Shown here: in pieces, positions 5,201-36,110 of the stretch
How positions within the stretch are numbered: the first letter of the stretch is position 1
Layout of the letters: the number at the start of each line of letters is the position of its first letter
Assembly: GCA_050287785.1 (NCBI GenBank)
Contig: JBNKCO010000018.1
Span: forward strand, 73,149 to 137,148
Source: Bacteroidales bacterium
GTDB lineage: Bacteria; Bacteroidota; Bacteroidia; Bacteroidales; UBA10428
Reading direction: 5' to 3'
Length of the DNA: 64,000 nt
The notes under the pieces: generated by a model
The model's database searches: none
Told to the model about the DNA's origin: nothing
Seen by the model: only the letters and a program-made list of their open reading frames with translations
Program-made: the position numbers and the translations under genes

Positions 5201-7127
5201 TTTCACCAGAAGTAAGTGAAACTGCAGAAGAACAATCCATAATACCTGCCACAGGGACATTAACACTAGCAAACGTAGTATTCAGACTTTCATCCGATTC
5301 ATCTACAACGGAATCTGCATCAACTTTATAAATAATATTATATCCACCTGGGCTAATACCACCTGGCATAGTCACGATTTTGGAAACATATTTAGACTCG
5401 CCCGCTAGTGTTGGTGAAATTTCTGTGCTGTCAATTAGAAAATCACTTCCATCAATAATATTATCAGTAGACAAATAGTATTTGATCTCATTGCTTCCAG
5501 CAGTAGTGTTGCCTATATTTTTAACTTCACAATCTAAATGAACATTGGGTTGAAAAGATTCAACATAATAAGGAGATACATTAGCTGACTCGAAAATCAG
5601 GTCAGCATCAATAGTCGGACAATTTACTGTGACAGTATAATCTCCCTCTGCACCATTTGTGCCATCAAGCACAAGGTAATATGTACCCGGAATGGAATTA
5701 TCATAGACTAAATTACCACTAGAATAGGTAAGAAGGCTATCCTTATTTGAATCGTTCAACAAGTAAATTCCAAAATTTGCAGTTGAACTGACTACTACTG
5801 AAATTCGTCCTGGCATGGAGGTTGTGAATGTATGTACCACCTCCGGTCCGGTTGCATCGTAGTAGCTATTGCCATAACGGTTTACTATATTTGTTGCAGT
5901 AAAGGTTGAACCAGAATAAGGAGTACCACAGCTTAAAGCAATAGCTCCGCTACAATCAAGGCCAGGAAAAGAATCTGGTGGTTCTATTCCAACTGTAGCC
6001 TCCTGTGAGTTGGTGTAATTACCAGATCCCGGTGTAAGATCATCCAGATAAAAATAACCGTTATAGCTTCCTCCCCATCCCCAGTTAAAATGGAAATAGT
6101 CGGTTCCCTGATGTCCATCAAGCACGAATGCGTGTCCACCCGATCCTGTTCCCTTATACATAACAGGTCTTCCTGCATTACATTCCTTTAACATTAGCTT
6201 GGCCCAACTGGTATCGGCATAACTTGATTTACTGGTATATACTGCATTTGACGAATAATTAAAATATTTGATCAACGCATTGGTTGCTGATGATACATAA
6301 GAACCAGAACCTGTTGGACTGTAATTCATTCTCACAGAAACACCACAATGAAAAAGCAACTGTTCCACATCTGCATCGTATGCACCATTTGGCACAGGCA
6401 TACTCGCCCAATCGTATGTAGTAGCTCCAAAATCGGCAGATATCAGTCCATATGTATTTGAAGTCCATGAGTAACTTCCTATACCTGTAACCGGATAATT
6501 ATGATACTTCATTACCATGGCCATGGATGTTGCAACACAACCAGCATAAACATGTCCACAAGCCCCTGATGCATCTTCAGGACATGCTGCGTTATATCCA
6601 CATCCTTGATTCCAGTTTGTAGTAAGCAAAGGACTTACATTTAAAAGAGCATATGAATCCAATGTACTATTTATACTAAACAAGGAAGGTTCTGACTGAT
6701 ATTCTTCCCATTGCTTATGCTTAGAAATACCAGCTACATCAGGAATAGATTTCAGTGTTTTTATTTCTTCTGCCCTTGACTCCATCCATGCCAGAAATTC
6801 TGGTGGTGCATCTTCGTCAAGATTAAAGTTACTTTCGAAAGAATAAGCTATAACCGGTATTGTACGGTCATCGCCAGAAACAATAACATACCCCTTGTCA
6901 TTAGAAATATTATATACATGATACACAGCCGAACCGTTTCTTTTTTCGCTGTATTTATACGACAATGAAATACTTTTAGAAGAAAGAGATTTTCTGGTAT
7001 TAGATCTTTCACTAAGAAAATTTTCCGCTACTTTTTTGGCTATCAACGAGTCTACATCTCCGGCCTGTAGTTTTAATGCAATAAAAAGAAATAGTAATAA
7101 AGCATTTAATTTGATAGTAGTTTTCAT
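2271..7127 (-). CDS. secreted multidomain cysteine protease, peptidase C10 (streptopain-like) with LamG, SprB/Ig-like repeats and T9SS C-terminal sorting domain
   Basis: 1618 aa; signal peptide; inhibitor-like propeptide; C10 core (TTNWNQGCGYN, catalytic Cys in YAGCVATSMAMVM, His in GSGGHAFVLDGH, NWGWGGSYNGYFY); LamG_3-like block (FTLSFWFK..WHHVAAC..FIDEVKIY); SprB-type repeat (CAEANGTATVVATGGSGTYTYTWD); C-terminal YPNPTSGIVTFEY.. beta-sandwich tail. Confidence 0.85.
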   Translation of the reverse strand: MKTTIKLNALLLFLFIALKLQAGDVDSLIAKKVAENFLSERSNTRKSLSSKSISLSYKYSEKRNGSAVYHVYNISNDKGYVIVSGDDRTIPVIAYSFESNFNLDEDAPPEFLAWMESRAEEIKTLKSIPDVAGISKHKQWEEYQSEPSLFSINSTLDSYALLNVSPLLTTNWNQGCGYNAACPEDASGACGHVYAGCVATSMAMVMKYHNYPVTGIGSYSWTSNTYGLISADFGATTYDWASMPVPNGAYDADVEQLLFHCGVSVRMNYSPTGSGSYVSSATNALIKYFNYSSNAVYTSKSSYADTSWAKLMLKECNAGRPVMYKGTGSGGHAFVLDGHQGTDYFHFNWGWGGSYNGYFYLDDLTPGSGNYTNSQEATVGIEPPDSFPGLDCSGAIALSCGTPYSGSTFTATNIVNRYGNSYYDATGPEVVHTFTTSMPGRISVVVSSTANFGIYLLNDSNKDSLLTYSSGNLVYDNSIPGTYYLVLDGTNGAEGDYTVTVNCPTIDADLIFESANVSPYYVESFQPNVHLDCEVKNIGNTTAGSNEIKYYLSTDNIIDGSDFLIDSTEISPTLAGESKYVSKIVTMPGGISPGGYNIIYKVDADSVVDESDESLNTTFASVNVPVAGIMDCSSAVSLTSGERYFGNTNTYGAANIEDYSCAFMLEGKEVIHKITAPYSGLANIEFSERVSGDMLVLVLPTCNENTCTYSMAIWGLEDTLTSQTLPVVGGMDYYFITDGQAGVEGNYSLMVTMPDSCPSVNINHFGELDRCIGSGSPSLQIDWGMSKYQWYKNGTEIEGATWSTYSPTEDGEYWAEVTENGCTTTSDHLEVTYSPEPDTAHISALGDTIFCSGNSVDLDLYTLAGYSINWALNGEPVSGATSSIYTATESGTYTAQVTNISCTISSNPIEVTANPLATKLEEALPVPDTGLVSYFEFDGSNTDLSGNNNWNWPTLGVTVEYNRFDEFYESFYFDGIDGYVATGKRFTDPDEFTLSFWFKTSTIVGGRLAGFGDASMNASTNSDRQVYMSDDGRLHFGVNNGSPQTISSIAAFNNNNWHHVAACLSSAGTKLFIDGMLVDSDPAITNGGDYNGYWRFAYDTILPGYSNIPSSNHFNGFIDEVKIYSWELLPNEIQTLYEEQILTAKLTIDEACEESGSADIVIENSQTGVEYQLRNNSDNSFIGAAVTGTGGTISLPVGTITSTTVFNILTTQISTSCEYMFDSLFVYTVHEPPVITLGPDITACDSTNLEDLSGQSYPAYRWATGESTSQLTVASSGTYSLSVTDTNGCENSDTVQVVINETPSAIINTTNTDCAEANGTATVVATGGSGTYTYTWDSSVVSYTGAYASGLSAKNYSVNVDDGKCILAKTFSIVESFVPDITVTVSENSICQGDTSFIQMTGADSYSWSPTQGTTVAGSGEFYAGPDSTTVYFITGDLSGCTDVDTITILVKETPEINLGTDILVCDESYLIDAGSGFDSYLWSDGSTGQSMIGDTTDIGYGTSVYQVAVTQNGCKAIDSIAVTYKKCSSLNHTYSENRWLYYPNPTSGIVTFEYSEEINTDVRVVIRDMGGRIIKDFEIPVLSGSKKEIDLSNYKNEFFLVQIISEDKVYTGKLLKQ

Positions 7128-16177: not shown

Positions 16178-18367
16178 TTAGTTTTTTGAGAGTTCTTCTT
16201 TAAAATGTATCTCATTATACATCTGGCTGTAAAGATTATCTGTTTTCATCAAGGTTTCTTTAGCACCTGAAATTTCAATAGTATTATTCTGAAGGATGTA
16301 GATTTTATCTGCTTTGTTTGCAATTTTCAGTTGATGGGTAACCAAAATTATCCCACATTTTTCTCTAAACTTGTTTAACACAGACAATGCAAAATTCTCT
16401 GTATTCCTATCCATTGCAGAAGTAGGTTCGTCGAGCAATAACAATGATGGCTTTTTAGTTAGAGCTCTACATAAACTAATCAATTGTTTTTGCCCGCCAG
16501 AAATATTAATTCCTTCTTCACCCAACATTGTGGAATAACTTTGAGGAAACAAAGAGAAATATTTATCAAATTCATGCTTTTGACAAAATTCAATGCACCT
16601 ATTTACTTCATTTTCATCTCCGCCCATGCATAAATTATCCATTAATGTTCCATTGAATATGGAAGCCTCCTGGGGTACTACACCTAGAATGTGGCGGTAA
16701 TCTGGTGGAAATACATTGTCTAGGTTACTGTTATTTAAAAATGTTTTACCACTTTCTGGTTTATAGAACCCTTGCAATATATTTAGCAATGTAGTTTTTC
16801 CGCCTCCACTCTCACCTAGAATAGCAACAACTTCACCTTTACTCAGAGATAAGTTTATATTTGATAGTATTTGTTTCCTTCCCGGAAAACGATAACTAAC
16901 GTTTTCTAATTCAAGGCTTTTGAAGGATATATCAATTGTAGTTCGTTCTTCCTGAATATTATATTCCGGATTAATAGTTGCAAATTCATACATTCTGTTG
17001 AAAGCTACTTTTGCTCCTTGTAGAGTAATATTTGCAAAGGCCAAAGAAGCTATTGCTGGAAATAAAGAGCCTGTTATACCTAAAACAGCCATTAGTGTTC
17101 CTGTTGACATACTAGTAGACACAACTAACCATGAACCTAGGCCCAAGACACCAATTGTTATAATTACCCCAACTATATCAGCAAGAGCCTGAATGCTTAT
17201 GCCTAGTTTACCTAGGTGAAATATTTTATCCTGAAAATGGCCGTAAATTAGCTGATTAATATTTGTAAAAATATTCTCTTTGTTTTGTGTTTTGATTGAA
17301 CTAACACATTCCATTGTATTAATATAATTGCTTGTTTTATGGGAGTTTGCTGACATTACTTCTTGTTGGGCATTTACAATATTCTTATGGTATTTAAATG
17401 ATATAAATGCAAATATTGGTAAGCTTGAAATTACAATAGTCCCAATAATTCCGGAATAAACGAATAATACAACCAAACCTACTACTACTAAAAGAAAATT
17501 CATCAGCAATTCCATAACAACCTGAGTAATTGCAATCTGTATTCTGGAGGTATCGTCCATACGTGCAACAAGTTCTCCTACTCTTCTGTTATCAAAAAAT
17601 GATTTAGGTAGGAATAAAAGGCTGCTATAAAAACTGCCAATTAACCTGATATTAAAACCTTTACTTTGAGTAATTCCAAAGAATCCGGTAAGGTACGATA
17701 AACCACTGCGGGCGATTAGAAGTGTTAATAGTAATATTGTACCAAGAATAATTTTTTCGTAATCTTTTTCTGGTAGAATAACATCAATTAACTTTTGGGA
17801 ATAAATAGCCATGCCAAGACCAAGAGCAGATACCATAAGGCTTAAAATGAATATGATACCAAGCAAACTTTTATCCTCTTCTATTATTTGCTTAAACCAT
17901 TTTATTTTATTCTTTTTTTCTTTTTGAACTTTCTCGAAACTACTATTGGGTGTTAATTTTAAAAGAGCTTTTGAGCGCCAGATAGCTTCTAATTCCTGCT
18001 CTGTATATTTAACAATGCCCTTTGCCGGATCTCCAATAATAAATTTCCCTGAATTAAAACGATAGCAAACAACATAATGCTGCATACTGTTATCTAAGAT
18101 AACGTGAAGAATAACAGGCGTTTCATTTTTTTTCAACCATTCAATTCCTACCTCAAGCCCTTCTGCATTAAAACCACATTTTTGCGAACTCTGATATAAA
18201 CCTAAAATAGTTGTGCCTTGTTTAGAAGTACCGCTTAACTCTCTGAGTTGTTCAAGACTTTTTCTGCCACCGTTATAATTAATAACCGATAACAAACAAG
18301 CTACTCCACAGTCTGACTGATCTTGTTGAACAACAAATGTTTTAGATAGACTTTTCTTTTCTTTCAT
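16178..18367 (-). CDS. peptidase C39-containing ABC transporter (PCAT, bacteriocin processing/export)
   Basis: 729 aa; N-terminal C39 domain (QQDQSDCGVACLLSVINYNGG, later HYVVCY); 6-TM domain; Walker A GESGGGKTT, signature ISGGQKQ, Walker B LLLLDEPTS. Confidence 0.9.
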   Translation of the reverse strand: MKEKKSLSKTFVVQQDQSDCGVACLLSVINYNGGRKSLEQLRELSGTSKQGTTILGLYQSSQKCGFNAEGLEVGIEWLKKNETPVILHVILDNSMQHYVVCYRFNSGKFIIGDPAKGIVKYTEQELEAIWRSKALLKLTPNSSFEKVQKEKKNKIKWFKQIIEEDKSLLGIIFILSLMVSALGLGMAIYSQKLIDVILPEKDYEKIILGTILLLTLLIARSGLSYLTGFFGITQSKGFNIRLIGSFYSSLLFLPKSFFDNRRVGELVARMDDTSRIQIAITQVVMELLMNFLLVVVGLVVLFVYSGIIGTIVISSLPIFAFISFKYHKNIVNAQQEVMSANSHKTSNYINTMECVSSIKTQNKENIFTNINQLIYGHFQDKIFHLGKLGISIQALADIVGVIITIGVLGLGSWLVVSTSMSTGTLMAVLGITGSLFPAIASLAFANITLQGAKVAFNRMYEFATINPEYNIQEERTTIDISFKSLELENVSYRFPGRKQILSNINLSLSKGEVVAILGESGGGKTTLLNILQGFYKPESGKTFLNNSNLDNVFPPDYRHILGVVPQEASIFNGTLMDNLCMGGDENEVNRCIEFCQKHEFDKYFSLFPQSYSTMLGEEGINISGGQKQLISLCRALTKKPSLLLLDEPTSAMDRNTENFALSVLNKFREKCGIILVTHQLKIANKADKIYILQNNTIEISGAKETLMKTDNLYSQMYNEIHFKEELSKN

Positions 18368-21386: not shown

Positions 21387-21590
21387 TTAAAAACCACATG
21401 CTTCTCCCATTGCAATAGCGCCATAACTTGATGCTACAAAGCCCCCAGCACAAGCCAAACCTACAGAAGCAGCGCAGGTAGCAGCTGATATTACAACTAC
21501 TCCAGCATATAAGCCAATCATAATACCACATTTCCAACTGCCACCTTCAAGGTTTTCCATTTGTTCTAAACTTAAACTTTTCGTTTTCAT
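21387..21590 (-). CDS. double-glycine-leader class II (Blp-like) bacteriocin precursor, 4-Cys glycine/alanine-rich core
   Basis: MKTKSLSLEQMENLEGG / SWKCGIMIGLYAGVVVISAATCAASVGLACAGGFVASSYGAIAMGEACGF. The leader fits LSxxELxxIxGG. I prefer the ATG at 21590 over the track start at 21614. Confidence 0.85.
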   Translation of the reverse strand: MKTKSLSLEQMENLEGGSWKCGIMIGLYAGVVVISAATCAASVGLACAGGFVASSYGAIAMGEACGF

Positions 21591-21689
21591 AATTTTAATT
21601 TTTAAATTAGACATTAAGTTGAATTAATGTCCCCGTTGGCGCCTAACAGAGACAAAGCTTTATTTTGGATTTAACAAAACTCAAATAAA

Positions 21690-26178: not shown

Positions 26179-28380
26179 CTAATGAAATGCTTTTTCTTTT
26201 AGAGAATACTTGAGATGACCGGTCTGCCAAAATGCAAAAGAATATACATTTGCCAATTGTTCATAATATATTGATTTAGTATCATTCAAGCCATGCCCGG
26301 ATTTATAATTCACCGAGAATATAATCGGTTTGTCTGAAATGTTATTGGCTTGAAGTTTGGCAGCAAATTTCCCGGGTTGCCATGCAATTACACGTGGATC
26401 ATTCATGCCAGTTGTAATTAAAGTAGCCGGATAGTCCGTATTCATCTTTATATGAAGATAAGCATCCATCTCAATAAGAGCCATACACTCTGTAGAATCT
26501 TTTATTGTTCCAAACTCTTTGGCATTATTAGGGCCATTAGGGGTTTCTTCATTTCTAAGTGGATTCATCATTCCAACTTCTGCAATAGCCACAGCAAACA
26601 AGTCTGGCCTTTCTGTTAAAGCACGTCCAATAAGTATTCCTCCTGCACTCCCTCCCCTGATTACTGTTTTATTTTTAGATGTGTACCCCTCTTTAATCAT
26701 AAATTCAGTACAGGCTATAAGATCTTTCCATGTATTTGGCTTGGTTATCTTTTTACCCTCTTGATACCAATTGTCTCCTTTTTCTCCTCCTCCCCTTACA
26801 TGAGCTATACACAAAATACCTCCTTCTTCTACCCAGGTTAACCATTTTGGATTAAAGTAAGGTCTGATGGAATGTCCATAGGAACCATATCCATAGATCA
26901 TTGTCGGATGTTGTCCATTTAATGAAATATTCTTTTTATGTATCACAGATAGTGGAACTTTTTCTCCATCATACGAGGAAACAAGCAGCTCTTTTAATAC
27001 AAAATCATCAAACTCTGGGAAAAATGTTTTTGGTTCAAGATTTTCTTCAATAAATGTGTTTTTAGTAAAATTGTATTGATATCGGTTATAATCATTTATC
27101 CAGCCTATGGTTGATACCCATAATTCTGGATAATTGGTACCTTTATTAAAAATATTTATCCTACCTGATGGATTTGGTAAGACTATCTCATTTTCTTTTC
27201 CATCGTTTAAACTATATAGTTTGCCTTCAACACCATTTTTAGTACTTGTATAATAAAGGCAGTTAGAGGTTTGTTTTATATCTCTGATAACTTCGTCATG
27301 TTTTTCGTCTACCAGTACGGTCGCATTTTTTATATCAGGATCTCTTAACAAAGAACTCAACACTTGAAAGTTTGAAGAATTAAGTGCTGACAAACATATA
27401 AAAGTAGTATCCTCAAATATTATTTTTTCTACCTTATCCGCTTTCTTATGTAGAGGTTGCCATTCAAGATTTCCCTTTTGAATATTTTTAAGCAGTCCAT
27501 AATATCCATCATGGTATGCTGTAGCTCCACCAATATTTACATATAAATATTGATCTTCCTCTGACTGACACATAACAATAGGAAAATCTTCTGACCTCAA
27601 GTTAAGCTCAGGATGAGTCTCTCTACTTAATAAAACATTTAGTTTTTTGGGATCATCTCCTATTTTATAGAAAACAGACATCGTGTTTTTTAAAAAATTT
27701 TCTGAAGTATGATCTATTTCAGGTAAATGCACATACAAAATACCACTATTATCCGGAAGCCAACTTATCCCACCAATTCCTGTTGGCCAACAATGATCGA
27801 TAATTTGTGGCAATACTTTCCTGTTTCTCATATCTATAAAGATTATCTCTGAAACTTCTTCACCATTATGCGACAATGATACAGCTATATAGTCACCATT
27901 CCAACTTGGTTTAATATAATTAATAACATAGGTATTACCTGTCTCTATCTTGAAATTTTTGGGATCAAATAATAGTTCATCTTTGCTACTGAAACTCTCT
28001 CGATAAAACAAACGAGCTACATCCTCATCAGCTCCCTGCTTTAAAAAGAAATACTGATCGTTTCCTGTTACATATACCTTCCAGACTTCAAACGATACAC
28101 GTTGGTCATACATCTTCATTTTTTCTATCAATTCTGCTTTGCCAGTAATATTCCAAAAAATTCTTTTTGCAAATTCAGATTCTTCTTTAAACCATTTTTG
28201 TACAAGAGTATCTTTTAAGTTTTCAATATTTCTATAATCATCCTGAATAGTTTTACCAAAATACTTTTCTGAAACAATTTGCATTGGTGCTTCCGGATAA
28301 TCAAAACGTGATGAATTTATTTTCTCAGACTGATTACATCCAATTAATAAGATCAAAAGAAGTGGGCTTAGTTTTTTCAT
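26179..28380 (-). CDS. prolyl oligopeptidase (peptidase S9A), lipoprotein
   Basis: 733 aa; lipobox LLIGC; propeller region; catalytic domain with GGSAGG nucleophile elbow, NDPRV Asp, SGHG His. Confidence 0.9.
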   Translation of the reverse strand: MKKLSPLLLILLIGCNQSEKINSSRFDYPEAPMQIVSEKYFGKTIQDDYRNIENLKDTLVQKWFKEESEFAKRIFWNITGKAELIEKMKMYDQRVSFEVWKVYVTGNDQYFFLKQGADEDVARLFYRESFSSKDELLFDPKNFKIETGNTYVINYIKPSWNGDYIAVSLSHNGEEVSEIIFIDMRNRKVLPQIIDHCWPTGIGGISWLPDNSGILYVHLPEIDHTSENFLKNTMSVFYKIGDDPKKLNVLLSRETHPELNLRSEDFPIVMCQSEEDQYLYVNIGGATAYHDGYYGLLKNIQKGNLEWQPLHKKADKVEKIIFEDTTFICLSALNSSNFQVLSSLLRDPDIKNATVLVDEKHDEVIRDIKQTSNCLYYTSTKNGVEGKLYSLNDGKENEIVLPNPSGRINIFNKGTNYPELWVSTIGWINDYNRYQYNFTKNTFIEENLEPKTFFPEFDDFVLKELLVSSYDGEKVPLSVIHKKNISLNGQHPTMIYGYGSYGHSIRPYFNPKWLTWVEEGGILCIAHVRGGGEKGDNWYQEGKKITKPNTWKDLIACTEFMIKEGYTSKNKTVIRGGSAGGILIGRALTERPDLFAVAIAEVGMMNPLRNEETPNGPNNAKEFGTIKDSTECMALIEMDAYLHIKMNTDYPATLITTGMNDPRVIAWQPGKFAAKLQANNISDKPIIFSVNYKSGHGLNDTKSIYYEQLANVYSFAFWQTGHLKYSLKEKAFH

Positions 28381-28574: not shown

Positions 28575-29297
28575 CTAAGAAATATTCAATGCCTTAAGCA
28601 CCCCTTTTTTATAAGTTATTCCTATTGGGATATTTACTTTTTTATTCTTCCTTTCAATTAATATCTCACTACCTCTAACCGATTCTATTTTATCAATTGC
28701 CATTATATAAGACTTATGAATTCTAATAAAAATATCTTTTGGCAATATCTCCATTATGGAATTCATTGATTTATAAATAATATGCTTATTTTCTTCCATC
28801 ACAATTATAATATAATTCCTAGCAGCTTCAATGTATAGAATATCGTTAAAATCAATTTTAACCTTTTTCCCATCTACATCGGCAAAAAAGAAATTATGAA
28901 TTGGTTCTGCAGTTCTCTGTTTGTCCAGATCATTTAAAATTCGATCTACCGATTTTTTAAATCTTTTAAATGTTACTGGTTTCAATATATAATCAGATAC
29001 TCCCAACTCGTAACCGCTTAAAGTATAATCAATGTGCCCGGTTGTTAAAACTACATGCGGAATATTATGGCCCCACCTTTCTTTCATATTCTCAATTAAA
29101 TCAATTCCAGTAAATTCGGGCATTTGTATATCCAAAAACATTATATCTGGCTTATTGCTATCTAAAAAAGCAAGTACATCAATAGACTTGGTGCTTGCAT
29201 ACATTAATGCTAGCTGTGGTATTTTATTTATATGGTCTTTAATAAGGTTAATTGCCTCTTCCTGGTCATCGACAACTATGCAATTGTATTGTTTCAT
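28575..29297 (-). CDS. LytTR-family response regulator
   Basis: Receiver (IVVDDQE, FLDIQMPEFTG, ILKPV) plus LytTR domain (FIRIHKSYIMA). Confidence 0.9.
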   Translation of the reverse strand: MKQYNCIVVDDQEEAINLIKDHINKIPQLALMYASTKSIDVLAFLDSNKPDIMFLDIQMPEFTGIDLIENMKERWGHNIPHVVLTTGHIDYTLSGYELGVSDYILKPVTFKRFKKSVDRILNDLDKQRTAEPIHNFFFADVDGKKVKIDFNDILYIEAARNYIIIVMEENKHIIYKSMNSIMEILPKDIFIRIHKSYIMAIDKIESVRGSEILIERKNKKVNIPIGITYKKGVLKALNIS

Positions 29298-29316: not shown

Positions 29317-30357
29317 TTAACTATTAATCCTCAGTATACTATAATACATATTTTCTTTTTCTTCAGTAATCAACTCATAATTTTCGCTATAATGCAGATT
29401 AAGTATTTGCCTTGCGTTTTCAAGGCCTATACCAGAGCTTACTACATTTTTATTTTTATTTATCATGTTCTTCACATAAAACTCTATTTGATTTTCAGTA
29501 ATTACCAACTTGATTTCAATTGGATTTTCCTTTGTGCTATAAACTCCATGTTTAAAGGCATTTTCCACAAAGGTTATCAAAACTCTGGGATATATAGTAA
29601 TGCCATCCAAATTACCCTTGGTTACAATATCCACAAACACATCTTTGTTGAGTATTTTACGTAAACTAATATAATTGCTTAAGTATCTAATTTCATCCTT
29701 TAACTGAACGGTAACTTCAGGAGCATAGCTGGTATAATAACGTAACATGTCAGAATATTTCTCAATCGCTCTAGCAGTTTCTTTCGAGCATTGATTAGCG
29801 ATACTATAAATATGGTTTAAGAAATTAAACGTAACATGTGGATTAAACTGATTTTTAAAAAAAAACAGTTCCTTTTTTAAAAGGGCGGTGTCTTTTTCAT
29901 TCTGTAATCTAATTTTTTGCATTTTAAGTTTCCTAAAATAATAGGAAAAAGCAACAAGGCAAATTATAAAAAACCATGTAGAATAAATCCTAAAAAACCT
30001 TTGACTTGGAAATAAAAGTTGAGGTTTAATTTTTAAAATGGTAACATCATAGATAAAATAGGAATTCAAGTAACCAATAAAATAATAAACAAGTAATTGA
30101 ACAATAAAAAAGGTGAAAAACAACAGTTTCCCTTTAGGCCAAAATTTTGGTAAAGTGAACATTATCAATCCATAAAAAGCGACTAAATGATTAACATAAA
30201 GTATAGAGTTAAATATTATCTTCCCTGGATATATTTCTTTAATTTGAGCTGTATTATATAAATATACAATTAGCACAATCCAAATAGCAAAATGACTGAT
30301 GATATTCTTATTGAATTGATTTGTCACCTTATTTTTATAGACTAAAATCTTTCGCAT
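29317..30357 (-). CDS. membrane histidine kinase (PF06580 type) without a large sensory exo-domain
   Basis: 346 aa; about 5 N-terminal TM helices; H-box FNPHVTFNFLNHIYS; FVENAFKHG; SGIGLENARQIL. Confidence 0.85.
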   Translation of the reverse strand: MRKILVYKNKVTNQFNKNIISHFAIWIVLIVYLYNTAQIKEIYPGKIIFNSILYVNHLVAFYGLIMFTLPKFWPKGKLLFFTFFIVQLLVYYFIGYLNSYFIYDVTILKIKPQLLFPSQRFFRIYSTWFFIICLVAFSYYFRKLKMQKIRLQNEKDTALLKKELFFFKNQFNPHVTFNFLNHIYSIANQCSKETARAIEKYSDMLRYYTSYAPEVTVQLKDEIRYLSNYISLRKILNKDVFVDIVTKGNLDGITIYPRVLITFVENAFKHGVYSTKENPIEIKLVITENQIEFYVKNMINKNKNVVSSGIGLENARQILNLHYSENYELITEEKENMYYSILRINS

Positions 30358-31375: not shown

Positions 31376-32389
31376 CTACCATATTATGGTTAACGTGCTG
31401 GTGTAAAATTCATTTAATTGTTTAATATCTATTTTGTACTTTCCTTTATAATGCATTTCCAGGATTTGTTTCAAATTGTCTTCACCTAAGCCAGCTAAAA
31501 TTGGTTTCTTATGTCTGGTTATTTTGTTTTTTACCGAAAAATCAAGTCTCTCTTTGCTAGCTTTCATGTTTATTTCAATAGGATATTCCTTGTTGTTTAA
31601 CTGCTCACGTATAAAGACATTCTCAACAAATGTCACTAAAAGTCGTGGTAAAATCGATTTATTCTTAGCCTTATTCTCGTAGTTAAAAACTACATACAAT
31701 TCTGAACTTAGCGCTTTTTGCAACTCAACAAAATTATCTAGATACTCAATCTCATGTTCCAGTGGAACACTTTCATTAAGATTAGTTCTTAATGAATATT
31801 CCAGCATATCAGAAAACACTTCTATCGAGTTTGTTGCTTTTTCAGAATATTTGTTCAAATGGCTGTAGCAAAAGTTTAAAAAATTAAAGGTTAAATGGGT
31901 GTTAAACTGTCCTTTAAGAAAATCAAGTTCGTTATTAATCAATACTTCTTCTTTTTGTTTTTGCAGGGCGAGTTTGTATATATTCAATTTGTTCAAATAA
32001 AACACAAATGCACAGGAACCTATAATAGAAAGTTGAAGAATTGCATCAATAATAAAAACTGTTACAGGTTTTCCATAAAGCTTGCTAGTACCACCAAGTT
32101 TTGGAACTATATACATCACCCTCACATATTTAATCAAAACAAATACAATAAAAACAGTACACAAACTCATAAAAAAAACTAAAAATTGTTTTGTATAGAG
32201 TTTTGGGAAAATATTTAAGGCCAGGGCATAGTATAAAAATATATAATTCCCAAATCCTACAGCACCACCAATTATATTTACTCTAACATCTCCGGGAATT
32301 GGATCAATTAGCATTATAAATGCAATAATTAGTACCCAACTGAAAAAGTGTTTCTTTAATTCTTTATTAGGTAGAGTAAAAGGATTCAT
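31376..32389 (-). CDS. membrane histidine kinase (PF06580 type), paralog of 29317-30357, no adjacent response regulator
   Basis: 337 aa; about 5 TM helices; H-box FNTHLTFNFLNFCYS; FVENVFI and AGLGEDN boxes are somewhat degenerate. Confidence 0.8.
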   Translation of the reverse strand: MNPFTLPNKELKKHFFSWVLIIAFIMLIDPIPGDVRVNIIGGAVGFGNYIFLYYALALNIFPKLYTKQFLVFFMSLCTVFIVFVLIKYVRVMYIVPKLGGTSKLYGKPVTVFIIDAILQLSIIGSCAFVFYLNKLNIYKLALQKQKEEVLINNELDFLKGQFNTHLTFNFLNFCYSHLNKYSEKATNSIEVFSDMLEYSLRTNLNESVPLEHEIEYLDNFVELQKALSSELYVVFNYENKAKNKSILPRLLVTFVENVFIREQLNNKEYPIEINMKASKERLDFSVKNKITRHKKPILAGLGEDNLKQILEMHYKGKYKIDIKQLNEFYTSTLTIIW

Positions 32390-32835
32390 AAAAACATATT
32401 TATCCGAAAGATAATTTTATTATTAGGGATATTATTAATTCTTATTCATACTTTGTTTTTTTTTGGACAAACATAAGAATTACTTATATGAATTTAGAAT
32501 AGGTAGACAAGTAAATATTACAAAAACATATGACTTTGTATGCTAACACTTAAGGTTTTCTAAACATGATAAAAAAAGGTAAAGCTTAGCTGATAATTAA
32601 TTTTTTAACCAAAACATTAAATACTAAAGGCACAATATACCAAATCAATAGATAAAAACTAAATGAGCTGATATAAATGAATAATAATTATACTAAATGC
32701 CAATTATTTAATATAAATTATCTATTGAGTTGTTTGAAATGGCTTTTTGACTTCACAAGTAAAAACATTAGAAATGAAATTAGTTATGAATTTAATTATG
32801 TTTGTACACACAAACCTTATTATAAAATTTCAAAT

Positions 32836-32995
32836 ATAAAAAAGACAAAAGAACTTCAACTTAAAAAACAGGTAATACAACATTTGACTAAAAATGAACA
32901 ACTCTTTATATAGAGGTGGTGGTGACACTGGGTATGGTAATAGTGATCTTACTGATAATCCATCTCAGATAGGTGGTACCGGCACAAAACACTAA
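32836..32995 (+). pseudogene. GG-leader precursor-peptide gene, apparently inactivated (ATA in place of ATG, +1 frameshift before the GG site)
   Basis: Frame 1 reads (ATA)KKTKELQLKKQVIQHLTKNEQLFI*. Frame 2 reads ..LYRGGGDTGYGNSDLTDNPSQIGGTGTKH* (ATG at 32894, stop 32993-32995). Lies just upstream of lanB. Confidence 0.5.
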
Positions 32996-33085
32996 TGTAA
33001 ATCAGTTTTAGAATACAAGGTGAATTCTTACATAAACCTTGTATTCTTACTTATTTAATTTTAATATCTCACTCTAAAGAATTAA

Positions 33086-35382
33086 ATGCCCTTTAAAATT
33101 CATCCGAAATTAATATTACGCTCTCCAAGTTTCCATTTTAAAGGATTAAAAACATAAAGAAATACATTAAACAGTTAAATATATCTTATAAAGAAAATAG
33201 AATTTTACAGACTGACCTGGTAAAAGAAGCCAAAACCTCTAAACTCAACCAGGGAATTCAAAAAACTCTGAAAAACGGTATTAACGCTTTACTGTATTTC
33301 ACACAAAAACCGATAAAATATAACTTAGAAAAGTTTAAAGAATCGTTTGTTAAAAGATACGAATTGAAAGAGGTACCCTTACTAAATGCCCTTGATACAG
33401 AAACCGGACTTGGCTACCCCATTGTCATTATTGGCAGCAAAACACCTCTAATTGAAAATATTGCTTTTACGCTTCATGAAACAAATAGTATTGCTTTTAA
33501 TGAAAGAGATAAGATTTGTCTGGAGATATTACAAAAGGCTCACTTGTTTAATGATTATTCTGTAGACATTAAAGATTTTATTTCGAACAAACCTAAACCA
33601 AATTGGGATAGTCTACCTCCTTCGTTTTCAGCAATGTTCAGAGTAACTAATTTTGAGAAAAATGAAATTTTTCTGGAATCGGTAGGGGGGAGCAGTGCGA
33701 TAAATCTTTTAGGCAGATTTGCACATACCGACAAGCAGATACACGAAATAATATCGAAAATAGCTAATGAAGAGCAAAAAAATAACCCTGATGTTATTTT
33801 TGCTGAGATAGCTCACAATCCGGAGAATCGTACGGGAAATATTATCTCACACCCTGCTTTTAGAGATTATGAAATCCCAATTGTATCTTCATCTAACCCA
33901 AATGTTAAGCATTCAATTGCATTGTGTGATCTTTTATTATCAGTAAGAAACAACAGGATTATTCTAAGGTCGAAAAAGTTAGACAAAGAAATAATTCCTC
34001 GATTAAGCAATGCACATAATTTTCCCAAGAGTGAACTACCTATATATAGGTTTCTGTGCGATCTTCAAACACAAAATAACAATTCATCACTTTCATTCAA
34101 TTGGGGAAGTCTATCAGACAATTTTCTGTTTCTTCCTAGAATAACACATGATAATACAATTCTCAGTCTTGCTACCTGGAAATTGCCAAAAAGCGAACTA
34201 CTCATCTTAACAAAGAATAAGAATGCTTATTTGCTTTTGCCTGAATTTCTAAAGAAATGGAAGATTCCAAATCAAGTAGTAATTGCTGACAGAGATAACG
34301 AGCTATTTATTGATTTTAGTAATGATTTATCTGTTGAAGTTTTTTTAGACGTAATAAGAAAAAAAGAAAGCATTGTTTTAAAAGAATTTCTTTTCGATGA
34401 AAATACTCCTATTGTCGATGAGAATGGGAAAAGATATACTAATCAGTTTATAGCCTCTTTCGTAAAAGATGAAGCTGTTTACAAGAGGAAATCTTTTTCC
34501 CATGAATCGAATATTGAAGTTAAGCGTGAATTTACGCCAGGTTCTAAGTGGGTATATTTAAAATACTATTGTGGAACAAATACAGCTGACAACCTGTTAA
34601 GCGATATTATTAAGCCAATAGCTGATAAATTCCTAAAAGAACAAATTATTGATAAATGGTTTTTTATACGTTATCGCGATGAAGATGAACACTTAAGGGT
34701 AAGATTCCACATAACTAACACAAAGTATCTCTCCGAGGTAATGCAAACAAACTCAGGATACACACAGAAATATATCGACCAAGGTCTTATCTGGAAAGTA
34801 CAAACCGACACTTATATTAGAGAAATAGAGCGGTATGGTGCTGCAACAATGGAATTAAGCGAACAGCTTTTCTTTTATGATAGCGAAGCTATTTCAATAT
34901 TTCTATCATCAATTGATGAAACTACTGATACAAACATACGATGGCTATGGGGAATAAAAGCCATAGACACTCTAATGAATTGCTTTGGCTTAGAGCTGGA
35001 AGATAAAAAGAAATTAATGGAGCAATTAAAAATTGCATTTGCAAATGAGTTTAAGTTAGAAAAACCATCCAAGCTTCAAGTTGATAAGAATTATCGAAAA
35101 TACTCTAAGCAGATATGTTCTGCATTAGATAATAATTTGGAGGAAAATCCCTTGTATTCTTACCTGAATATTATTGAAGATTATCAAATTAATATCTTGA
35201 AAATTGCACCGAATATAATTTTAAGAACGTCTAACTCTTCTGATTTATGGAGTTATCTCAAAAGCTATATTCATATGCATATTAATAGGTTGCTAAAAAG
35301 CTCTCAACGCCTAAATGAAATGGTTATTTACGATTACATTTATAGGTACTATCGTTCTCTTATGGCCAGGGGAAATAAATAA
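33086..35382 (+). pseudogene. lanthipeptide dehydratase (LanB-like), 5'-truncated and frameshifted
   Basis: MPFKIHPKLILRSPSFHFKGLKT* (33086-33157) is in a different frame from the 33142-35382 ORF. That ORF has FKESFVKRYELKEVPLLNALDTETGLGYP, which lies ~380 aa into NisB but ~90 aa in here. C-terminal elimination domain present (WVYLKYYCG..WFFIRYRDEDEHLRVRF..ERYG). Confidence 0.7.
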
Positions 35383-35962: not shown

Positions 35963-36026
35963 ATAAAACACAAAAAACCCGCAAGTAAAGTACTTGCGGG
36001 TTTTTATTTTCTCCTAAAATTTTGGC
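35963..36026. repeat. right copy of 63/64-nt imperfect direct repeat (candidate att site) overlapping the last 4 nt of tRNA-Ser
   Basis: Aligns with 14355-14417; its last 4 nt (tggc) are the discriminator + CCA of the tRNA on the minus strand. Confidence 0.8.
35971..36006 (-). terminator. terminator hairpin immediately 3' of tRNA-Ser
   Basis: Same stem cccgcaagta / tacttgcggg (35978-35987 / 35991-36000), flanked by A- and T-tracts. Confidence 0.75.
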
Positions 36027-36110
36027 GGAGAAAGAGGGATTCGAACCCCCGGTGCGTTGCCGCACAATGGTTTTCAAGACCACCGCATTCGACCACTCTG
36101 CCATTTCTCC
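36023..36110 (-). tRNA. tRNA-Ser (anticodon UGA), type II with long variable arm, CCA encoded
   Basis: Hand-folded: acceptor GGAGAAA/TTTCTCC, anticodon arm GTGGT-CTTGAAA-ACCAT, variable arm TGTGCGGCAACGCACCGG, T-arm GGGGG-TTCGAAT-CCCTC, G-CCA end. Confidence 0.9.

Follow-up and report, generated by a model that had tools for sequence, protein, structure and literature searches.

LanB dehydratases act by Glu-tRNA-dependent glutamylation followed by elimination. In the thiopeptide and goadsporin systems, Glu-tRNA-dependent LanBs yield Dha and Dhb outside thioether rings, and these LanBs are split and work alongside YcaO/azole or [4+2] cyclase enzymes; at the nisA-nisB junction, a hairpin stands between the precursor gene and the dehydratase gene downstream of it. 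The class I lanthipeptide precursors of Bacteroidota (pinensin-type; NF038153; PMC7268733) lie directly upstream of a full-length LanB and have leaders of the form LxLxKx5L...GG, as described for class I LanAs of Bacteroidetes (Walker et al. 2020, PMC7268733). The RODEO pipeline of that study discards Cys-free ORFs, so such peptides are uncatalogued there, and since mining pipelines drop Cys-free candidates by design (PMC7268733), their products are systematically missed. In Firmicutes, the GG pheromone circuits and those of class II bacteriocins (ComC/ComDE/ComAB, BlpC/BlpHR/BlpAB, PlnA) place a small GG peptide beside one or more kinases and a LytTR regulator, and a C39 ABC exporter is close by.

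The DNA analysed here, referred to as the window, is a stretch of 64,000 nt, part of contig C18 in a Bacteroidales genome of 6.4 Mb and 34% GC. It points to a small cassette that recurs within one environmental Bacteroidales genus (three genomes: the window's own, G008 and G010), on a metagenome contig (L017) and in a Cyclobacteriaceae MAG (L059). In this cassette, a full-length lanthipeptide dehydratase is paired with a Cys-free GG-leader peptide, one or more exported prolyl oligopeptidases, two membrane kinases and a LytTR regulator. Like the Bacteroidota class I lanthipeptides, the cassette has the LxLxKx5L...GG leader directly upstream of LanB, three of the relatives score 25.8, 19.4 and 18.9 bits with NF038153 (cutoff 22), and in one of them (L017) a C39 exporter (PCAT) lies inside the cassette. 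On the other hand, its cores lack Cys and the genus lacks LanC, which leaves no lanthionine, and the cassette adds exported S9 prolyl oligopeptidases, two kinases and a LytTR regulator. It shares the order of precursor gene, hairpin and dehydratase gene with nisin, but has no FNLD box in the leader, no cyclase and no core Cys. Its LanB is a single protein of ~1016 aa with both Pfam domains, in contrast to the split LanBs of thiopeptide and goadsporin systems, and their YcaO/azole or [4+2] cyclase enzymes are missing. It resembles the Firmicutes circuits in its GG peptide beside kinases and a LytTR regulator, but a LanB dehydratase and prolyl oligopeptidases accompany the peptide, the kinases belong to the PF06580 (LytS/YehU-like) type and the host is a Gram-negative Bacteroidota. 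A literature search, with most subscription journals lying outside it, returned no account of LanC-less, Cys-free Bacteroidota LanB clusters with prolyl oligopeptidase and LytTR, and novelty is unproven.

In the window itself, positions 32836-32995 are very probably a pseudogene of a LanA-like RiPP precursor, and the biosynthetic half of the cassette has very probably decayed with it. Taken as such, the window copy is an ordinary pseudogene and the interest lies in the family. What is added to the sequence-only reading made earlier is mainly that the producing half of the cassette appears dead and that a core without Cys is normal for this clade. The features discussed below are collected in Table 1.

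Table 1. Positions of cassette features and of related elements in the window.
Feature	Position	Strand	Basis
C39-peptidase ABC exporter (PCAT)	16178..18367	-	Pfam Peptidase_C39 + ABC_membrane + ABC_tran
Second S9 prolyl oligopeptidase, 733 aa, intact, lipoprotein signal	26179..28380	-	Pfam; N-terminus MKKLSPLLLILLIGC
LytTR response regulator, full length	28575-29297	-	Pfam; full-length alignment to G008 ortholog
Histidine kinase 2, full length	29317-30357	-	Pfam; full-length alignment to G008 ortholog
S9 prolyl oligopeptidase remnant, in cluster, 280 aa	30497..31339	-	N- and C-terminal pieces joined in frame
Membrane histidine kinase 1, 337 aa, full length	31376..32389	-	Pfam His_kinase PF06580; full-length alignment to G010 kinases
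Octamer TATGTTTG, fits Bacteroidota -7 box	32797..32804	+	~31 nt upstream of start position
Leader remnant ATA-KKTKELQLKKQVIQHLTKNEQLFI-TAG, frame 1	32836..32913	+	LxLxKx5L motif; leader HMM; G008 leader match
One-base insertion site ATATAG	32908..32913	+	Alignment to G008 and G010
Leader end (RGG), Cys-free core GDTGYGNSDLTDNPSQIGGTGTKH and TAA, frame 2	32914..32995	+	RGG aligned with G008/G010 RGG
Perfect 12-bp hairpin between peptide gene and lanB	33010..33047	+	Folding and shuffles
LanB N-terminal remnant MPFKIHPKLILRSPSFHFKGLKT-stop, frame 2	33086..33157	+	First 20 residues resemble G008 LanB 1-20 (MKFQIHSQLILRTPNLHFQE)
Rest of LanB, frame 1	33166..35382	+	G008 residues ~269-1011 (tblastn)

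The peptide gene is read in two frames. An ATA at 32836-32838 opens the leader in frame 1, which ends at a TAG at 32911-32913 (with the ATA position included, IKKTKELQLKKQVIQHLTKNEQLFI-TAG) and contains the LxLxKx5L motif exactly, as LQLKKQVIQHL. Frame 2 has its own ATG at 32894-32896, reads MNNSLYRGGGDTGYGNSDLTDNPSQIGGTGTKH and stops at a TAA at 32993-32995, so that the continuation after the shift is ..RGGG DTGYGNSDLTDNPSQIGGTGTKH-TAA; the core holds seven Ser/Thr, one Pro and no Cys. The ATA, both frames, their stops and the Cys-free core are thus all as the sequence-only reading had described them. Formally, the frame-1 ORF is open as far back as an ATG at 32677 (78 aa), but the part upstream of the leader is without relatives and is probably non-coding.

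Comparison with relatives shows what the undamaged gene looks like. In G008, of the same genus, an ATG-started, single-frame ortholog (leader MRKEKKLQLKKQVIHQLTISEQLNFRGG, core NGQDTTSPEKTMIPPDDEGELKDKD) lies immediately upstream of an intact 1016-aa LanB (56% identical), and the window leader shares 18 of its 28 native residues with it (19 of 28 if M is substituted for the ATA-encoded I; BLASTP). Further members occupy the same cassette position in G010 (ISKHNSLILKKTLTRKLTNIDMASIRGG followed by DNLWKTKTTIETK), in L017 (MKHQKKKIQIEKMTVQKLTHSHLAKVWGG followed by NSNFQGGPITKPSVLKPTISG) and in L059 (MKKKKTLSLDKIVVQKLTESQLTKVLGG followed by DDAVGTKPLTPLNGGGGKAK). The LxLxKx5L...GG leader is present in the window, G008 and G010, with IxIxK at the corresponding place in L017 and LxLxD in L059. 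A leader HMM built from the four relatives, with the window excluded, was run over the complete set of 246,140 six-frame segments from the 6.4-Mb genome, and the frame-1 segment, which lies directly upstream of the genome's only LanB, ranked first (E = 0.0011, 22.6 bits); the leader match exceeds chance. The second-best match (contig C50, 16 aa) falls inside another protein's reading frame and was set aside as chance. That the resemblance arose by chance in AT-rich, Lys-rich intergenic DNA that was never a precursor gene, as scores under threshold with curated HMMs and the commonness of K/L-rich strings at 34% GC might suggest, is effectively refuted by the syntenic ortholog with its 18 of 28 shared native residues, by the first genome-wide rank of an independent leader HMM and by the conservation of both a promoter-type box and the place upstream of LanB.

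Curated models describe the peptides less well. Once repaired, the window peptide scores below threshold with every curated leader HMM: 12.3 bits with NF038153 (class I lanthipeptide leader, lant_leader_L1a; cutoff 22) and 13.4 bits with TIGR04149 (GG_sam_targ_CFB, rSAM-modified RiPP; cutoff 25). TIGR04149 had been proposed earlier as the model to scan with, but scores with it are only 13.4-13.8 bits and NF038153 fits better; TIGR01847, proposed alongside it, is absent from the reported matches in the NCBIfam scans, and no radical SAM family is among the Pfam matches of the ORFs at 26-42 kb. For the G010 peptide, the NF038153 scan reported no match, and the four other family peptides gave none with Pfam, Lant_leader_dom included. 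A protein homolog search with the G008 peptide returned that peptide alone, as gene calling seldom picks up short peptides.

Aligned at the DNA level, the window is one base longer than both G008 and G010 within ATATAG, the site reading TTTATATAGAGGTGG in the window, AATTT-TAGAGGAGG in G008 and AGTAT-TAGAGGTGG in G010. It is this extra base that brings the TAG into being and pushes everything after it in the gene into frame 2, and deleting any single base of 32905-32912 gives ..NEQLF(I/Y)RGG followed by the G-core in one frame; an RGG with I/Y at -4 is found in the window only once the inserted base is removed. The earlier proposal of a single-base indel near 32905 thus holds as to the kind of event, while the alignment places it a few bases downstream. 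Ancestrally, the gene would have encoded ~52 residues, (M)KKTKELQLKKQVIQHLTKNEQLF(I/Y)RGG followed by the core GDTGYGNSDLTDNPSQIGGTGTKH, until a one-base insertion immediately ahead of the RGG codons brought in the TAG and put the core out of frame. Measured against intact orthologs, the assembly sequence shows the marks of a pseudogene: a one-base insertion, a premature TAG, ATA for ATG, and deletions in both LanB and the S9 gene. The earlier reading of an inactivated GG-leader precursor upstream of lanB is borne out by the intact single-frame ortholog in G008, from which the window copy differs by one inserted base and the ATA.

The ATA stands at exactly the codon where G008 has ATG, as the earlier reading of an ATA in place of an expected ATG implies, but it may not be a lesion by itself, because G010 has ATA at the same codon next to intact enzymes. 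It is therefore conceivable, though we think it a minority possibility, that this lineage tolerates ATA as a weak initiator and that the gene was alive until the base insertion or the LanB deletion. The G010 codon precedes the end of the LKK motif by 11 codons, as in the window, the G010 peptide is in an open frame beside an intact LanB and S9, and NCBI table 11 includes ATA among the possible starts. At the same time, G008, L017 and L059 all have ATG, a change of G to A is the expected route of decay at 34% GC, and the G010 start is itself ambiguous: eight codons downstream there is an in-frame TTG, and 5 nt upstream an ATG that is out of frame, which means that the G010 copy may be damaged as well. 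Either translation in G010 starts at ATA or TTG, or its copy is damaged too. A tolerated ATA would change the sequence in which things happened, while the locus would be judged dead all the same. The out-of-frame ATG of G010 (L009 5450-5580) encodes MKYRNTIL-stop.

A sequencing or assembly error, in which case the peptide gene would really be continuous and only its ATA start unusual, is improbable. The extra base does sit in an AT-rich run (TTTATATAG) of a kind that some platforms miscall, and a search of contigs encoding the adjacent kinase found no independent assembly of the locus. However, ~745 bp are gone from lanB and ~1.2 kb from the S9 gene, which is beyond base-calling errors, and the other genes of the window are intact: 82% of it is covered by ORFs of 100 aa or more and neighbouring genes are full length, which argues against an assembly riddled with frameshifts in general. 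If the peptide gene were continuous, a LanB without its leader-binding region would still leave the pathway dead.

Far less probable still is a functional two-frame layout, whether by programmed +1 frameshifting at ATA-TAG or with the 33-aa frame-2 ORF as a short-leader peptide. A stop right after the shift site is superficially like the prfB-type +1 frameshift, and frame 2 does own an ATG, but the layout is not conserved (G008, L017 and L059 are single-frame, and G010 is single-frame at the site) and re-pairing from AUA to UAU is poor, for which reasons programmed frameshifting was rejected. The single-frame relatives, and the very existence of homologs of the leader frame, are the opposite of what had been named beforehand as evidence against a pseudogene. 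The 33-aa ORF from ATG 32894 is an accidental reading; its leader had rightly been called implausibly short, being the nine-residue MNNSLYRGG without the LxLxKx5L part that relatives keep, and the LanB that such a peptide would have to be served by is truncated.

LanB is damaged as well. The surviving first 20 residues in frame 2 (MPFKIHPKLILRSPSFHFKG..) and the frame-1 part, 54% identical to G008 LanB by tblastn, leave G008 residues ~21-268 (~250 residues, ~745 bp) unaccounted for, and in Pfam searches of the LanB ORF the match to Lant_dehydr_N covers only profile positions 322-648 of 649, with Lant_dehydr_C full. Pfam and tblastn coverage, together with the frame-2 remnant, therefore indicate a deletion of ~250 residues and a broken LanB frame. 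The frame-1 part is without an ATG start, its first listed start being a TTG at 33364 (ORF 33364-35382). Nearly all of the best 120 database LanB homologs are 1000-1150 aa long, the few shorter ones coming from short metagenome contigs, and a full-length LanB is adjacent to the peptide gene in G008, G010, L017 and L059, though not in the window. The leader-binding RRE of MadB comprises residues 161-225 (PMC12241602), which align to ~140-204 of G008 LanB, inside the deletion; by this alignment, the window LanB is predicted to have lost its RRE as well as being out of frame with its own start. This LanB occurs in only 3 of the 25 species of the genus. A locus search with the truncated window LanB as single query returned nothing, and an alignment used as query gave loci. 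The closest database LanB (P0002; L016/L058/L138, uncultured Bacteroidales, 47% identical) is preceded by a leader-like ORF, MTRKLRIEIKHLNQLFSTSWREWVRSVGG followed by NFCKIKKHIHYALQSANFKKK, with one Cys and a basic core, on a short contig without S9 or kinase.

The S9 prolyl oligopeptidase within the cluster is similarly reduced. By tblastn, only G008 S9 residues 7-244 and 639-728 are left, with partial Pfam matches; the signal peptide is kept and the central ~390 residues (~1.2 kb), which should hold the catalytic serine, are gone. The sensing genes have fared differently: kinase 1, divergent from the peptide gene, is whole, and kinase 2 and the LytTR regulator are full length with 52% and 70% identity to their G008 orthologs. 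The second S9, also syntenic in G008, is intact, and the synteny of the cassette with both G008 and G010 is complete. As to the order in which such a cassette erodes, the locus shows the peptide, the dehydratase and one peptidase lost and the sensors kept. Its producing half (peptide, LanB and one S9) appears dead throughout, with the kinases, the LytTR regulator and the second S9 at full length. In G008 (L008 8726-9732, +), the kinase beside the peptide gene is broken up into ORFs of 149 and 141 aa, its window ortholog being whole; the window genome and G008 have lost opposite halves of the cassette. The cassette is rare: among 80 LanB loci from metagenomes, not one has an S9 next to it. Its border differs between genomes: the window has a tRNA-Ser(TGA) at 36023-36110 (-), 640 bp downstream of the LanB remnant, and G008 LanB is followed instead by a 140-aa ORF, DUF3103 and a PIF1-like helicase.

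None of the five family members (window, G008, G010, L017 and L059) has a Cys in its core, and four of the five cores contain Pro. The Cys-free core is a trait of the family and not a product of decay. It had earlier been regarded as odd next to a LanB, yet here it is the normal state: a search for LanC (PF05147) gave no match in the whole genomes of the three LanB carriers of the genus (G000, G008 and G010), while three control genomes of the same order did give matches. As the intact copies never had Cys, the family product is other than a classical ring-containing lantibiotic. LanC absence is not universal for the cassette, because in L059 a true LanC lies 5 kb from the Cys-free peptide. 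The more distant LanBs of the order (35-39% identity) are found mostly in canonical clusters with LanC adjacent, often followed by PCAT. Many Bacteroidota LanB loci are without LanC within 7 kb, especially in Flavobacterium (L093, L097, L098, L100, L105, L111 and L112), and several of the precursors found there have one-Cys cores. In these Flavobacterium GG-leader precursors, the single Cys is near the core C-terminus (e.g. DAPDDPIDGTGNKGGNSSGDCR), and in F. davisii (L112) the precursor comes first, then the S9 peptidase and then LanB.

From the homology, lesions, synteny, Cys-free cores and missing LanC described above, and from what is known of the biochemistry of LanB, C39 exporters, S9 prolyl oligopeptidases and LytTR systems, we infer how the intact system might work in terms of chemistry, export route and signalling role. 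LanB would bind the leader and dehydrate core Ser/Thr to Dha/Dhb via the glutamyl-tRNA route, and thioether rings would not form, because there is neither Cys nor LanC. A C39 ABC exporter would cut after GG and secrete the peptide; the sole nearby candidate for GG-leader processing in the window, PCAT, is 15 kb away in a separate bacteriocin locus. One or more exported prolyl oligopeptidases may then trim the peptide after Pro, and the membrane kinases with the LytTR regulator may sense or regulate it. The cassette product would most likely be a linear, dehydrated, secreted peptide and possibly a signal. A peptide that undergoes dehydration only, or serves as a signal, as had been raised earlier, is compatible with the conserved kinase/LytTR/peptidase context.

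More speculatively, the intact relatives could represent an undescribed Bacteroidota RiPP family of dehydropeptide pheromones with class-I-type GG leaders, which a full-length LanB would dehydrate and nothing more, there being neither Cys nor a cyclase, and which would then be exported, trimmed by dedicated exported S9 prolyl oligopeptidases and sensed by a two-kinase/LytTR module. The copy in the window would then have died recently, its sensing half outliving the producing half; we consider this a tentative proposal with the balance against it. If it were true, the family would be a Gram-negative counterpart of the ComC/Blp circuits, and a sensing half that outlives its producing half would have the look of an eavesdropping ('cheater') strain. 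Should LanB dehydrate Cys-free cores, the products would be linear dehydropeptides, possibly signals.

Transcription signals of the window copy look preserved, judging by a conserved octamer and a strong hairpin. The Bacteroidota -7 promoter box has the consensus TAnnTTTG, by which TATGTTTG is a putative promoter element; aligned with the G008 ortholog, it is unchanged both in its letters and in its distance from the start position. The hairpin between the peptide gene and lanB folds at -18.4 kcal/mol (z = -5.3), with none of 200 shuffles folding as well, and is likely an attenuator or terminator by prediction; a simple terminator scan left it uncalled because it has no strong T run. LytTR operators typically have the geometry of two 9-bp direct repeats that start 21 bp apart. 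Upstream of the peptide gene, G008 (L057 ~6370-6410) has the 9-bp direct repeats CAGTGCAAT and CAGGGCAAT, separated by 12 nt, and L017 (~5555-5590) has GGAGGAATT and GGACGAATT, also separated by 12 nt; both pairs are thus 21 bp from start to start, with repeat sequences that differ between the loci. G010 has one copy of CAGTGCAAG upstream. The G008 repeat motif was not found upstream of the window copy, no LytTR-type repeat shared between the loci was found, and the window-wide repeat count (45, against 35 +/- 6 expected) is at chance level. Shared operator repeats therefore lend no support to the proposed sensing or regulation by the kinases and LytTR.

Elsewhere in the window, a separate 75-aa ORF at 21387-21614 (-) resembles a GG-leader class II bacteriocin (MSNLKIKIMKTKSLSLEQMENLEGG followed by SWKCG...), and has as its neighbours the PCAT, OEP, HlyD, a MacB/FtsX pump and a thioredoxin-fold protein.
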